Made by a program: the position numbers and the translations under genes. From positions 1 through 15,191 of the IMG/VR virus record IMGVR_UViG_3300050821_002957: a DNA stretch of 15,191 bases; one strand, given 5' to 3'. Shown piece after piece: positions 725-13,439 of the stretch (position 1 is the stretch's first letter; each line of letters opens with the position of its first letter). The notes under the pieces are model-generated. The model was not told the origin of the DNA. It saw nothing but the letters and a program-made list of their open reading frames with translations, and ran no database searches. This DNA comes from a virus.

Positions 725-952
725 ATGCCTATCATCAATGTACCCTCGCCATCGCCAATGTCCGACTACCAAAAGGTCCAATTTGCGACCGAAGTAGCCT
801 TCAATTCACTCCTGGACGAAGCCAAAAAGCTCGGCCTGCCTCTGGAGCCGGTCATGGGCCTGATGTACCTTCCTACTTCAAAGCTAACAAGTGACTTTCA
901 AACGGCTTGCAGAGCCATTTTGGATGCTCTAAAAACGCCTCAAGAAAATTAG
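725..952 (+). CDS. hypothetical protein (75 aa)
   Basis: ORF with AGGT a few nt upstream of the ATG. No motif recognised. Confidence 0.45.
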   Translation: MPIINVPSPSPMSDYQKVQFATEVAFNSLLDEAKKLGLPLEPVMGLMYLPTSKLTSDFQTACRAILDALKTPQEN

Positions 953-996
953 ATACATCTATTGACTTCCAATTTGGAATTTGATAGCATGTATTC
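948..996 (+). promoter_or_regulatory. conserved early-promoter cassette, copy 1
   Basis: Palindrome-like TAGATACATCTA, then -35 TTGACT (962-967), 17-nt spacer, -10 TAGCAT (985-990). ATG at 997 lies 6 nt after the -10, so the mRNA should be leaderless. Confidence 0.6.
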
Positions 997-1446
997 ATGA
1001 GCGAATACACTGAAGCGAAATTAGACGGATCGAAAGTCATCGCCCAATTTGTTCTTGGCGGCAACTCTACCTTCACTGTGGTCTCGAAGCGCACCGGCTC
1101 CAGGCTGACGTTCAAGGTTGGATTTTGGGAAGAACGTAACATGTACATCGTCAAAGTTCTGACCGGCCCGGACAATGAAAACGACTACAGAAAGCTCGGC
1201 AAGATCAAAAACGGCATCTTCTCTTTGACTGATGCGGCTCGGGAGAACGGCTTCACCGTCGAGACTCGTTCCTTCAGCGTATTCTCCTGGCTGCTCCGCA
1301 ATCTCCAGTCCGAAAAGATCGACGATCAAATTGAAATCTGGCACGCTGGTCGCTGTGGCCGTTGCGGACGTAAGCTGACGGTGCCTGAGAGCATCGAGAC
1401 TGGTCTAGGACCGGAATGCGCTGAGAAAGGTTTTGGTGGTTTCTAG
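997..1446 (+). CDS. phage protein with a C-terminal CxxCG...GxGPEC zinc-ribbon motif (DUF6011-like)
   Basis: 149-aa ORF ending ...GRCGRCGRKLTVPESIETGLGPECAEKGFGGF. I recognise the CxxC...S...GxGPxC tail as a common phage C-terminal motif. Directly downstream of promoter copy 1. Confidence 0.6.
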   Translation: MSEYTEAKLDGSKVIAQFVLGGNSTFTVVSKRTGSRLTFKVGFWEERNMYIVKVLTGPDNENDYRKLGKIKNGIFSLTDAARENGFTVETRSFSVFSWLLRNLQSEKIDDQIEIWHAGRCGRCGRKLTVPESIETGLGPECAEKGFGGF

Positions 1447-1493
1447 TAGATACATCTATTGACATTGATCCCGAAACGAGGTACACTTTAATC
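1444..1493 (+). promoter_or_regulatory. conserved early-promoter cassette, copy 2
   Basis: TAGATACATCTA (1447-1458), -35 TTGACA (1459-1464), 17-nt spacer, -10 TACACT (1482-1487), ATG at 1494. Confidence 0.6.
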
Positions 1494-1661
1494 ATGACAA
1501 ACGAAATGATTTGGCAAAACATGACCGACGAACAAAGAAGGGCCGTCCTCGATCAATTCACTATGACTTCCGACATTCCTTCCGACATCAAGTGGGATCA
1601 TCTGGACCACGGAACACGGTCGGCGATCATCTTCACTGGAACGGTCGAGGGAATGAAATGA
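1494..1661 (+). CDS. small hypothetical protein (55 aa, leaderless)
   Basis: ATG 1494 sits 6 nt after the -10. Translation MTNEMIWQNMTDEQRRAVLDQFTMTSDIPSDIKWDHLDHGTRSAIIFTGTVEGMK. Below the ORF-track length cutoff. Confidence 0.45.
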   Translation: MTNEMIWQNMTDEQRRAVLDQFTMTSDIPSDIKWDHLDHGTRSAIIFTGTVEGMK

Positions 1662-1747
1662 TCGTCCTCCTTGCCGTCCTCAAAATTCAGGCTATGTTTT
1701 ACGGTTTGCGTCTGTTATTCTATATCAAGGTGAACCCAAATGACTAA
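1658..1747 (+). CDS. mini hydrophobic peptide (29 aa)
   Basis: ATG overlaps the upstream TGA (ATGA). MIVLLAVLKIQAMFYGLRLLFYIKVNPND is a single predicted TM helix. Weak support. Confidence 0.25.
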   Translation: MIVLLAVLKIQAMFYGLRLLFYIKVNPND

Positions 1748-1979
1748 CCTTCTCATTTCGCTCGGGGCTGCTGTCATGTGGCTTCTTCGGGTCCAAGAGT
1801 TAAAGTCTGCATTGCCGGAAGAATGCACGATGCTTCCGTCTGAGGGCCGCAGCTTCATCAATCTCCAACATTATGACCCGGACACGATCACTCGAATGTC
1901 AAGTGAGAATTATGAAGCTACGCATACTGCGGCTACTCCTGAAGTGGTCGTACTATCTGAAAATCCAACGGCTGAGTAA
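1740..1979 (+). CDS. hypothetical protein (79 aa)
   Basis: ORF overlaps the previous stop and has an N-terminal hydrophobic segment. Confidence 0.4.
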   Translation: MTNLLISLGAAVMWLLRVQELKSALPEECTMLPSEGRSFINLQHYDPDTITRMSSENYEATHTAATPEVVVLSENPTAE

Positions 1980-2048
1980 TTGGCTCTGGCATCGTAAGAT
2001 GGACGAGTTTTATCGGACGGTTCACCATCAGTCCGACTACGGCTGGTA

Positions 2049-2077
2049 ATTCCAAAATCTCATGCTATGATATTGGC
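2049..2077 (+). promoter_or_regulatory. extended -10 promoter (TGCTATGAT) for the downstream membrane protein
   Basis: TGcTATGAT, then 6 nt, then ATG 2078. The -35 is weak. Same leaderless geometry as the cassette family. Confidence 0.35.
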
Positions 2078-11719: not shown

Positions 11720-11982
11720 TGAAAATCGAACAGCTATTTTCGGACGAAGAACTCGATTTTTTCGACGATATGGAAAAGCATGATCCGTTCATCGTTGAAT
11801 GTCATTTCTGCAAAGGCAAGCTGCACGTTGACAACAATGCAATGAGCCGGTGCATGAGTGGACTGGAAGTTGCACCACGAGGCTTTAGCTGGATCTCGGT
11901 GATTATCGAACCGTTCAACGAAGTGCCGTGCTGCGACATCTGTTTTGAAAAACCCAATCTCCCTGGAATGGTGATGTTTTAA
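11719..11982 (+). CDS. hypothetical Cys-rich protein (87 aa)
   Basis: GAGGA RBS, start overlapping the previous TAA. Contains CHFC...C...CCDIC. Confidence 0.5.
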   Translation: MKIEQLFSDEELDFFDDMEKHDPFIVECHFCKGKLHVDNNAMSRCMSGLEVAPRGFSWISVIIEPFNEVPCCDICFEKPNLPGMVMF

Positions 11983-12221
11983 TGGCAATGATTACGGCAC
12001 AACTTAATACCGGCGACGAAAAACTCTATCGTTTCAATGTCCACGGATACGCTGTGCCTCTTCAGGTTTGGGAGAATCCGTACTCCAGCCTGACCAGTGA
12101 CAATTGGTACTACCTCAACTCGAATGGGTACGCACAAAAGTTCAATCCTGATCGGCCTCCGTCAAAATGGCCTTCTCCTGAGCGCCTGATTCTGGTGCCC
12201 GACATCAACCAAAACATCTGA
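11982..12221 (+). CDS. hypothetical protein (79 aa)
   Basis: TAATG overlap with the upstream gene. Confidence 0.45.
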   Translation: MAMITAQLNTGDEKLYRFNVHGYAVPLQVWENPYSSLTSDNWYYLNSNGYAQKFNPDRPPSKWPSPERLILVPDINQNI

Positions 12222-12232
12222 AAGGAACTTTT

Positions 12233-12604
12233 ATGCCTACCGATCCCATGAATTTGAAAGACTACAGTAAGCAGTATGGTGATCTCGAAATGTTCAAAAA
12301 TTTCGAGCGACCGTACAAACGAATTGGCCTGCCGGTTGAGGCAGCACCAACAATGACCTTCAAATCAGCCTTGACTGCGTACTTGGTCAACAACTGCATG
12401 ATGCCCTCCGACGCCACACAAGTCATGGAAACCGTCATGGCCGACCCCAAAAACGATCATATGAAAGCGCATTGGGATCAACCTGTCACTGGATACCCAC
12501 CGGAACTGTTGACGGGACTTATGCTCACCATGAACGGACACGCCCTGACCTGGATCGACGCCAATTGCCCCGCCGTATTTTACCGGGCGATGTTCGTCAA
12601 TTAA
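12233..12604 (+). CDS. hypothetical protein (123 aa)
   Basis: AAGGA RBS 8 nt upstream. Confidence 0.55.
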   Translation: MPTDPMNLKDYSKQYGDLEMFKNFERPYKRIGLPVEAAPTMTFKSALTAYLVNNCMMPSDATQVMETVMADPKNDHMKAHWDQPVTGYPPELLTGLMLTMNGHALTWIDANCPAVFYRAMFVN

Positions 12605-12606
12605 TT

Positions 12607-12653
12607 TAGATACATCTATTGACATTCAGGTCGGCATCTGGTAGTATTGAGTT
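12607..12653 (+). promoter_or_regulatory. conserved early-promoter cassette, copy 4
   Basis: TAGATACATCTA (12607-12618), -35 TTGACA (12619-12624), 17-nt spacer, TGGTAGTAT extended -10 (12639-12647), ATG 12654. Confidence 0.6.
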
Positions 12654-13238
12654 ATGGAAACGTACAACGTAGCTGACCTGATGGAACAGATGAAATCTGG
12701 CCGTTATCAATATGGCATGGGCAATTCGACTACGAGCATCATCCGTTCGATCACCGAAACGGACGGCAAGTACTTAGTCGTTGGTGACACGTTTGCCTGC
12801 TCTGGTGACGAGAATCTTCAACTTTCGGTCACGCCGATCCTGGTACAATTGAAGCCGATGGTCGAAGATTACTTTTCCGGGGAATGCGCCGCTTTCGAGA
12901 CCCTGGCTGAGGCTCTAAAACACGCCAGTGTCAAACGGATCACTGGACGCATCCTGACGGCCACCGACGAATTCAAATTGAAAGCTGGAGTGGTCGAGAA
13001 AAAGAAGTTCTCGAAGAAACGCCTGGAAGCAGTCCTGGAGCAGAACGGATTCGGAAAGAGCGTAAGCTACGAGGCGTATGGACGTGACGTGCGTGCTTTC
13101 ATCGGAACTGACAAACGGACGCAACTGGAAGCGTTTCTGCGCCTTCTGGGGCAGTCTGTAGACGAGTCCTACGCTCCTGGTCGCAACGTCGTCGAGTGCA
13201 AAGTGACTTTCTTCAAGGCATGGCACTGGGATGAGTAG
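12654..13238 (+). CDS. hypothetical protein (194 aa)
   Basis: Leaderless ORF. No motif recognised. Confidence 0.55.
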   Translation: METYNVADLMEQMKSGRYQYGMGNSTTSIIRSITETDGKYLVVGDTFACSGDENLQLSVTPILVQLKPMVEDYFSGECAAFETLAEALKHASVKRITGRILTATDEFKLKAGVVEKKKFSKKRLEAVLEQNGFGKSVSYEAYGRDVRAFIGTDKRTQLEAFLRLLGQSVDESYAPGRNVVECKVTFFKAWHWDE

Positions 13239-13396
13239 ATCCGAACTGCGCCGGATGTCAATGGCGAAACTGATCGATCTCGCACAGGAAAATGAAATCT
13301 TCGTCTGGTTCGATGCCCACCGGGAAGGCATTTTGGAAGCGCTGGTGGACAAGCTGGTCGAAGAAAAAAGTGACGTTTGGTGTGCATATTTTTAGA
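13231..13396 (+). CDS. small hypothetical protein (54 aa)
   Basis: ATG 13231 overlaps the end of the previous gene by 8 nt. MSRSELRRMSMAKLIDLAQENEIFVWFDAHREGILEALVDKLVEEKSDVWCAYF. Its stop TAG is the first triplet of the next palindrome. Confidence 0.35.
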
Positions 13397-13439
13397 TGCA
13401 TCTATTGACTTTGGGGCCGATCTGCGGTAGACTTTAAGT
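13393..13439 (+). promoter_or_regulatory. conserved early-promoter cassette, copy 5 (perfect palindrome)
   Basis: TAGATGCATCTA (13393-13404), -35 TTGACT (13405-13410), 17-nt spacer, -10 TAGACT (13428-13433), ATG 13440. Confidence 0.6.

Follow-up and report, generated by a model that had tools for sequence, protein, structure and literature searches.

Several described systems resemble, each in part, the element analysed here, a 12-bp dyad with the consensus TAGAT-RY-ATCTA that stands at promoters in a 15,191-nt stretch of viral DNA (IMG/VR record IMGVR_UViG_3300050821_002957, positions 1 to 15,191; the whole stretch is hereafter called the window). In mycobacteriophage L5 (stoperators) and phage phiC31 (conserved inverted repeats), one short site is repeated genome-wide and places many units under one phage regulator. 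Class II activators such as CRP and FNR bind E. coli promoters at sites centred at -41.5, and the proximal subsite of the UP element extends from -46 to -38. In the operators of the ribbon-helix-helix (RHH) proteins Arc and CopG, which overlap the promoter, a 4-bp box (TAGA for Arc, TGCA for CopG) is followed after 5 bp by its inverted copy (PMC2724298), and each operator half is bound by one RHH dimer (PMC2724298; PMC12645479). The PeSLs of T4-type phages, finally, combine a strong sigma-70-like promoter with a stable stem-loop terminator, are conserved over about 100 bp, cluster among ORFans (open reading frames, ORFs, of orphan type), and mediate modular shuffling (PMC2839356; PMC4122927). 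Literature searches yielded no description of either the present motif or the phage group that carries it.

With a probability of about 0.5, we read the dyad as an operator at which a two-fold-symmetric phage protein binds, most likely to turn off one class of early promoters; the best candidate for this binder is an RHH protein encoded at 5637-5999 of the window. This reading is based on the symmetry of the element, its sequence-specific conservation, its exclusive and flexible association with promoters, the constancy of the promoter class gene by gene, and its absence from cellular genomes. An earlier note on this DNA had also proposed a regulon operator, possibly for the RHH protein. The operator-like behaviour and the conservation of a putatively co-regulated set across the phage family agree with that proposal, and co-occurrence within the clade makes the RHH protein a reasonable candidate.

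Promoter cassettes in the window

The 20-mer TTAGATRCATCTATTGACWT is present in five copies on the plus strand of the window (949-968, 1446-1465, 11087-11106, 12606-12625 and 13392-13411), of which the copy at 1446-1465 has one mismatch, the first T being replaced by G. None of 200 dinucleotide-preserving shuffles of the window contained a match (0 expected vs. 5 found). The five-copy cassette described in the earlier note is confirmed. The inner 12-mer is the perfect palindrome TAGATGCATCTA at 11088 and 13393 and is one central base off the palindrome, TAGATACATCTA, at 950, 1447 and 12607, again as the note had it. When up to two mismatches are allowed, the 12-mer occurs nine times in the window, compared to 1.16 expected.

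All five copies share one layout, namely the 12-bp dyad, TTGACW, a 17-nt spacer, TANNNT, exactly 6 nt, and the ATG of a plus-strand ORF. The hexamers and spacing of a sigma-70-type promoter (TTGACA-like, 16-18 nt, TATAAT-like) are thus present in every copy, and TGn precedes the -10 in three of them. The cassettes and the comparable promoters of the window are as follows.

950-999, plus strand: cassette 1; dyad TAGATACATCTA at 950-961, -35 TTGACT at 962-967, 17-nt spacer, -10 TAGCAT at 985-990, 6 nt, ATG at 997 of the DUF6011 gene (997-1446)
1447-1496, plus strand: cassette 2; dyad TAGATACATCTA at 1447-1458, -35 TTGACA, -10 TACACT at 1482-1487, 6 nt, ATG at 1494 of a 55-aa ORFan
10664-10714, plus strand: degenerate cassette; TAGACGTATCAA, -35 TTGACA at 10676-10681, -10 TACAGT at 10699-10704, 7 nt, ATG at 10712
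11088-11137, plus strand: cassette 3; dyad TAGATGCATCTA at 11088-11099, -35 TTGACT, TGG and -10 TAATCT at 11123-11128, 6 nt, ATG at 11135 of a 66-aa ORFan
12607-12656, plus strand: cassette 4; dyad TAGATACATCTA at 12607-12618, -35 TTGACA, TGG and -10 TAGTAT at 12642-12647, 6 nt, ATG at 12654 of a 194-aa ORFan
13393-13442, plus strand: cassette 5; dyad TAGATGCATCTA at 13393-13404, -35 TTGACT, -10 TAGACT at 13428-13433, 6 nt, ATG at 13440 of an 86-aa ORFan
2561-2596, plus strand: dyad-less, putatively leaderless promoter of the NADAR gene; TTGACG, 16-nt spacer, TAGGAT, 5 nt, ATG at 2594
9497-9534, plus strand: dyad-less, putatively leaderless promoter; TTGACC, 17-nt spacer, TAAACT, 6 nt, ATG at 9532

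Related promoters lacking the palindrome had been listed in the earlier note at 2561, 6820, 7048, 9497 and 10676. The first four exist and are free of the element, whereas the -35 of the promoter at 10676 is abutted by a degenerate sixth copy, TAGACGTATCAA at 10664-10675, which matches at 10 of 12 positions; this promoter is therefore not truly palindrome-less. The sequence GATCTGGTA, which according to the earlier note is shared by several spacers just before the -10, stands in its exact form ahead of one -10 box (11116) and with one mismatch ahead of another (12635), but this 9-mer is not present above chance level (5 in the window vs. 2.5 expected, a count reached by 23 of 200 shuffles). 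It is the extended -10 motif TGn, in many cases with ATC in front of it, that does recur at this place.

A regularity absent from the earlier note concerns the start codon. The ATG that opens the ORF lies 5-7 nt, mostly exactly 6 nt, 3' of the -10 in the five copies and at the promoters 2561, 9497 and 10676. If transcription starts at the usual distance from the -10 hexamer (7 nt), the A of the ATG becomes +1, and the positions that follow from this geometry are -35 to -30 for the -35 hexamer and -47 to -36 for the dyad, with its centre at -41.5. Judged in this way, the mRNAs made from the cassettes are leaderless, with neither a leader nor a Shine-Dalgarno sequence.

The spacers and flanks of the copies are unrelated, and identity is confined to about 20 bp and scattered promoter positions. 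The copies therefore appear to be kept by selection on functional positions, and recent duplication was rejected as their origin. A restriction-site artefact was likewise rejected, as ATGCAT occurs only in the GC-centred copies.

Conservation and nature of the element

The RHH protein of the window is identical to one encoded on a 404,282-bp ENA contig (L054, ERZ27253678:k141_5803278), and the window is therefore taken to be a strain variant of the L054 genome. The phage is present in the samples ERZ27253678, SRR7093796 and JGI 3300021404. Two further relatives, L056 (370 kb) and L058 (375 kb), show the same order of genes, and a Gp23 capsid gene of T4 type is present in L058; the remaining relatives (L052, L053 and L211) come from IMG/VR. 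A scan of viral contigs with a 17-mer gave 51 matches, with true homologous cassettes in eight loci (L009, L018, L025, L028, L037, L043, L044 and L050), each followed by a -10, a 6-nt gap and ATG. Most of the matches were coincidences in coding sequence, marked by a following TTGACTGG, and others were single chance matches; all of these were set aside. When metagenomes were scanned with the full cassette pattern, 45 stretches were found, compared to fewer than one expected by chance according to our own estimate. Relatives bearing the same cassette encode proteins that are only 40-80% identical.

To these may be added nine exact cassettes on Ga0210389 contigs (L060, L066, L067, L072, L076, L077, L090, L092 and L104), which derive from the same JGI metagenome as the first 1.7 kb of the window; the first 1,729 bases of the window are identical to a contig from that metagenome (3300021404). 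Because the nine overlap neither the window nor L054, the element is probably spread over other parts of the window-phage genome or over co-occurring relatives.

The four loci L052, L053, L056 and L058, fetched by means of their RHH protein and hence unselected for the motif, together provide 80 kb with 50 core promoters. An ATG follows the -10 by 5-7 nt in 29 of these and by exactly 6 nt in 24, where chance would give about 1/64 for each, and the leaderless geometry is thus systematic. The dyad is present at 17 of the 50 promoters, 15 of which are leaderless by this measure, and approximately half of the leaderless promoters in the four relatives bear it. Which promoters do so is kept gene by gene. 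The DUF6011 promoter is dyad-bearing in the window, L054, L056, L058 and L053, and the NADAR promoter is dyad-less in all relatives, with TTGACG and a 16-nt spacer.

About 330 kb of family DNA contains 107 elements with at most one mismatch. Of these, 104 adjoin a TTGAC...TANNNT core, and one of the other three stands at TTGACT with a non-standard -10. The dyad directly abuts the -35 hexamer in 90 cases, is offset by 1 bp in 10 and by 2-3 bp in 2, and lies within the spacer in 4. The elements, their geometry, conservation and symmetry, and their exclusive association with promoters are directly established by these observations.

An offset of 1 is usual in the L058 lineage. At L058 positions 1978, 12845, 13124, 14141, 14557 and 15567 the dyad is shifted by 1 bp (TAGATGTATCTA-C-TTGACA) and the spacer often opens with TCTATC, which creates a further CATCTA 11 bp 3' of the proximal half-site; this may represent one more half-site, at which binding could be cooperative. 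Either the dyad or one half-site with the centre (TAGATGTA) was also observed between -35 and -10 at L074 416, L099 2422, L056 7324 and 17394 (minus strand), L053 4900, L052 1418, L037 6710, L211 4527 and L054 4207, the copies in L052, L037 and L211 being at an orthologous promoter.

A host transcription factor could bind the dyad and tie part of the early programme to a host signal, and phages are known to exploit host regulators, phi29 with Spo0A being an example. In 185,579 species genomes, bacterial and archaeal with one genome per species, we nevertheless found only 106 single matches, scattered among unrelated taxa and never two per genome. This is about the number obtained for chance matches in a hand estimate from the information content of the pattern and the size of the collection. 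The scan required the dyad to be fused to TTGAC, and a free-standing TAGATRYATCTA host site would escape it. Since the matches are at about the estimated chance level, the element appears to be specific to this phage family and no host regulon is recognisable, and a role for a host factor is accordingly very unlikely.

The type of conservation was analysed in 98 distinct cassettes. Among the five symmetric base pairs of the dyad there are no compensatory changes, 44 one-sided changes that break a pair, and 10 G-T pairs, which means that the base sequence is conserved and not the potential to pair. G3 and C10 of the dyad are nearly invariant. This bears on the possibility of an RNA or single-stranded DNA hairpin that would act as terminator, attenuator or processing site for read-through from upstream. 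The element is indeed palindromic and located at the 3' end of the upstream ORF, with the stop codon inside the element at 950 and 13393. Nonetheless, a folding energy of 0 was computed for the 12-mer as RNA, its 38-nt contexts are no more stable than shuffled sequences, the element has no G+C-rich stem and no U-tract, and a terminator scan of the window found no terminator-like site at any cassette. On the folding and covariation evidence, we rejected this role, which is essentially refuted.

The central dinucleotide is of the form RY, with AC in 53 of the 98 cassettes, GT in 23, GC in 15 and AT in 5. As AC and GT are reverse complements, the asymmetric centre is used in both orientations, which is what would be expected if the site is recognised by a two-fold-symmetric protein and not through a one-sided contact. 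The latter would be implied if no dedicated factor were involved and the polymerase itself recognised the dyad. It could do so through the alpha C-terminal domain, as at a UP element, or, with the dyad lengthening the -35 on its upstream side, through sigma region 4 or in a phage-modified form, and the promoters would then be extra strong. In line with such a role, the dyad abuts the -35, is 67-75% A+T, and overlaps the proximal UP subsite, contrary to the claim of the earlier note that it lies off the UP-element position. Its proximal half is also slightly better conserved in loci unselected by the motif (5 vs. 10 mismatches), which could reflect polymerase contact. On the other hand, such an element leaves the symmetry unexplained. 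The dyad contains no A-tract, and the sequence at -46 to -38 is AGATRYATC, which does not match the proximal UP consensus AAAAAARNR. The displacement of the dyad by 1-3 bp or into the spacer argues against a rigid -35 extension read by sigma, and the element is missing from equally good promoters of the same genome as well as from bacterial genomes. We consider a pure polymerase element improbable.

Activation has to be considered as well. A phage dimer bound at -41.5 could contact the polymerase and turn the promoters on, forming a delayed-early or middle class in the manner of Mu Mor/C or of CRP and FNR. The centre at -41.5, with +1 at the A of the ATG, is that of a class II site, and not of a class I site as had been claimed for -47 to -36. 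In common with the sites of CRP and FNR (-41.5) or Mu Mor/C (about -43.5), the dyad is symmetric and abuts or overlaps the -35. Its position is tightly held (offset 0 in 90 and offset 1 in 10 of 106 promoter-associated elements), and the per-gene constancy of the two promoter classes would also fit an activator. Class II promoters typically lack a good -35 and are activator-dependent; here, by contrast, the -35, spacer and extended -10 are near consensus. The -35 of the cassettes, TTGACA/T at an optimal spacing, is not defective. The dyad promoters examined in relatives (n = 23) have TTGACA in 16 cases, a 17-nt spacer in 20 and TGn in 21, compared to 12, 10 and 19 of the dyad-less promoters (n = 21). 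Dyad promoter cores are thus at least as good as dyad-less ones and would need no activator, which favours repression over activation of class II type. Moreover, an activator could not act in the same way from the copies in the spacer, which fit occlusion of the polymerase, and the 5-2-5 arrangement of the half-sites is unlike the consensus of CRP or FNR. Activation is therefore the less attractive explanation and, in our view, an unlikely one.

The ribbon-helix-helix protein as candidate binder

In the operator reading, it is quite probable that a sequence-specific symmetric protein binds the dyad, and, if it does, that the effect is repression is moderately favoured. That the protein in question is the RHH protein of the window is a more tentative proposal. 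The gene and its promoter are as follows.

5637-5999, plus strand: candidate binder, a 120-aa ribbon-helix-helix protein with a predicted beta-strand KILLRL, two helices and a C-terminal helical hairpin
5590-5636, plus strand: promoter and leader of the RHH gene; extended -10 TGcTATATAC with no recognisable -35, leader of about 35 nt, Shine-Dalgarno sequence AGAGGAA

No other small DNA-binding protein is recognisable in the window, and Pfam scans of 20 more of its ORFs detected no further DNA-binding domain. At E<=0.1, the Pfam model RHH_1 is matched by 24 of 27 homologues of the protein, the best at 1.8e-4. In the AlphaFold2 model, residues 10-16 are extended, residues 17-30 and 36-49 form helices, and the C-terminal part is a helical hairpin, which gives the order strand-helix-helix. 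All 62 of 62 homologues are at least 57% identical, and residues K10, L12, L13, R14 and L15 of the predicted beta-strand are invariant in the family. With 65-81% identity, compared to 38-79% for its neighbours, the protein is the best conserved of its region, and each of the six long loci with the RHH gene also bears the dyad element. Read as TAGA boxes, the dyad becomes TAGA-N4-TCTA, two inverted boxes 4 bp apart that abut the -35, one base pair shorter than in Arc and CopG.

The promoter of the RHH gene is of another type than the cassettes. Its TGnTATATAC, together with a Shine-Dalgarno AGAGG, is kept in all six relatives (L054, L056, L058, L052, L053 and L211), and each 20-kb locus has a single TATATAC on the gene strand, located at this promoter in every case. 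The difference is consistent with a regulator expressed under other rules than its putative targets. In the window, L053 and L211, TATATAC is followed 3 nt later by a TAGA(T/A) half-site, which in the window takes the form TAGA-N7-TCTA; it may, though the indication is weak, be an autoregulatory site.

Several points weigh against the operator reading or against the RHH protein as its agent. In addition to the better conserved proximal half of the dyad and the classical activator position of its centre, the match of the window protein to RHH_1 (16.6 bits) is below the cut-off of 20.5. A Foldseek search of the PDB with the AlphaFold2 monomer gave nothing below E 1, and a profile search of the PDB nothing meaningful. 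An hhalign comparison to Arc produced the expected register (ILLRLP/FNLRWP) at a non-significant E of 0.28, and that to Mnt was also not significant. As both the beta-strand and the element are invariant across the family, a covariation test of protein against site is ruled out. Many RHH repressors are autoregulated, and no full dyad is conserved at the promoter of the RHH gene itself. Finally, the link between protein and site is one of co-occurrence within one clade, equally expected for any clade-specific protein, and the search for other candidate binders covered about 20 kb, or about 5%, of the approximately 404-kb genome.

From these data we infer protein binding, repression and the RHH protein as binder, and the following model can be proposed. 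Promoters of the form TTGACA-17 nt-TGnTAnnnT would be read by the host RNA polymerase, and about half of those in the early, ORFan-rich region would carry the operator. With the A of the start codon at +1, the messages would be leaderless. Sigma region 4 and the alpha C-terminal domain would face competition from a dimer, or dimer of dimers, bound at -47 to -36, and the whole class of dyad promoters would in this way be switched together, most likely being silenced once the early phase is over. Promoters without the dyad (NADAR, the kinase operon and the tRNA promoters) would escape, and the RHH protein would be made from its own promoter of different type.

Genomic setting and comparison with known systems

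The window encodes eight or nine tRNAs, NADAR, HD, YqeY and DUF6011 proteins, an RF2-like release factor, a GIY-YIG endonuclease and many ORFans. Judged by this content, it appears to be an early, hyperplastic region, and the phage an uncultured T4-related jumbo phage that looks lytic. A megablast search with the full window gave no match among 50,697 phage records. With the 194-aa ORF at 12654, tblastn against phage isolates found nothing and the search for related loci no relatives, and exact-protein look-ups of the window proteins at 12654-13238 and 14242-14835 returned no record. The DUF6011 protein matches only distant genes of large alphaproteobacterial phages and mycobacteriophages and is uninformative on the host. 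An Rfam scan detected tRNAs only.

Translation-related genes (tRNAs, YqeY, release factor) are frequent in the region, and L058 encodes a methionine aminopeptidase (Peptidase_M24) beside the RHH gene. The release-factor gene, with PCRF and RF-1 domains, is split at 8493-9156: the first ORF (8493-8600) ends with GGAGGGGTCTTTGAG (CTT TGA at 8595-8600), and the +1 frame from 8599 runs through the RF-domain ORF to 9156. This looks like a programmed +1 frameshift site of the prfB type, a Shine-Dalgarno-like sequence followed by CUU UGA, in a phage RF2-like gene. ARAGORN predicts a 93-nt tRNA-Ile (anticodon TAT) with a long extra arm at 3664-3756, overlapping the start of the HD-domain gene (3716), that is below the threshold of the Rfam tRNA model.

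The strong promoter at 7048 (TTGACA, 16-nt spacer, TGG, TATTCT; 7048-7160) is followed by about 80 nt with no ORF, internal complementarity (GAGGCGAAGTGCTCT ... AGAGCACTTCGCTGC) and no Rfam match; this segment may correspond to a small RNA, or to a structure for processing that precedes the tRNA cluster. Each locus has one copy of the T4 late-promoter consensus TATAAATA on the gene strand (window region 7157-7229, L056 11670, L058 11324, L052 11526, L053 11430 and L211 12395), always about 17-20 nt 5' of a tiny conserved basic ORF (window 7182-7229, MRRITITRREVKRKR), which is placed between the 7048 promoter and the tRNA cluster. Two genes are probably mobile endonuclease genes, namely a GIY-YIG/NUMOD3 homing endonuclease at 6027-6662 (plus strand), just 3' of the RHH gene and with a leaderless-like start (TATACA, 7 nt, ATG), and a 171-aa ORF at 7484-7999 (minus strand) within the tRNA cluster, which has weak homologues at the equivalent place in relatives.

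Gene regulation in uncultured jumbo phages is almost unknown, and the present family offers a testable regulon, with a 12-bp site, a promoter class and a matched dyad-less control, a candidate regulator and the prediction of leaderless messages. If the proposed model is true, the early genes of a T4-related giant phage are timed by means other than the MotA/AsiA scheme, and leaderless translation can be the default of a phage early programme. A compact promoter-operator part would also become available for hosts that read leaderless mRNAs.

In their genomic setting, the cassettes resemble PeSLs. Both are repeated compact cassettes in which a near-consensus promoter of sigma-70 type follows a palindrome, among small co-directional ORFs of a hyperplastic region and often beside ORFans that differ between related phages, and both belong to T4-related families. 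Four of the five window cassettes stand directly 5' of ORFs for which five related loci have no homologue; the intervening backbone genes are conserved. The Gp23 gene of L058 and the late-type motif once per locus are in keeping with a T4-related phage. The cassettes could accordingly be recombination points through which ORFans move in and out, the palindrome being a remnant or an equivalent of the PeSL stem-loop. The stem-loops of PeSLs, however, are stable (often polyG/polyC) and terminate transcription, whereas the A+T-rich dyad shows neither a fold nor covariation and is not a terminator stem-loop; copies share about 20 bp and scattered promoter positions as opposed to about 100 bp, and the mRNAs here are predicted to be leaderless. 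Mobility of this kind would account for the spread of the cassettes but not for base-specific symmetric conservation, and as the sole explanation it has little probability, although it is compatible with an operator. The cassettes occupy the same genomic niche as PeSLs and may spread likewise. A more speculative idea, which we regard as doubtful, is that dyad, consensus promoter and ATG at +1 form a portable expression module, by which captured ORFs would gain host transcription, leaderless translation and one common RHH timer, a plug-in regulon uniting PeSL-like mobility with Arc-like repression.

With L5 and phiC31 the window phage shares a multi-copy, short, conserved site that would tie transcription units to one regulator. 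Those phages, however, are temperate and the regulators are immunity repressors, and stoperators are asymmetric and lie within transcription units, whereas the present site is symmetric and fixed at the edge of the -35.

For the proposed mechanism itself, Arc of phage P22 and CopG of plasmid pMV158 are close parallels. Their operators likewise overlap or abut a strong promoter and consist of two inverted 4-bp boxes, with TAGA in Arc as here; an RHH protein is encoded nearby, and the predicted strand K-I-L-L-R-L-P is in register with Q-F-N-L-R-W-P of Arc. They differ in that the boxes of Arc and CopG are 5 bp apart in a 13-bp site whose axis passes through a G:C pair, compared to 4 bp in a 12-bp site with its axis between two base pairs, and in that each acts on one promoter and not on many per genome. 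The RHH protein described here also has a 70-aa C-terminal helical extension, and no significant sequence similarity connects it to Arc or Mnt. As a mechanism, a symmetric promoter operator is conventional, and the feature added by this family is the systematic leaderless early expression, as read from promoter geometry, in a T4-related jumbo phage.

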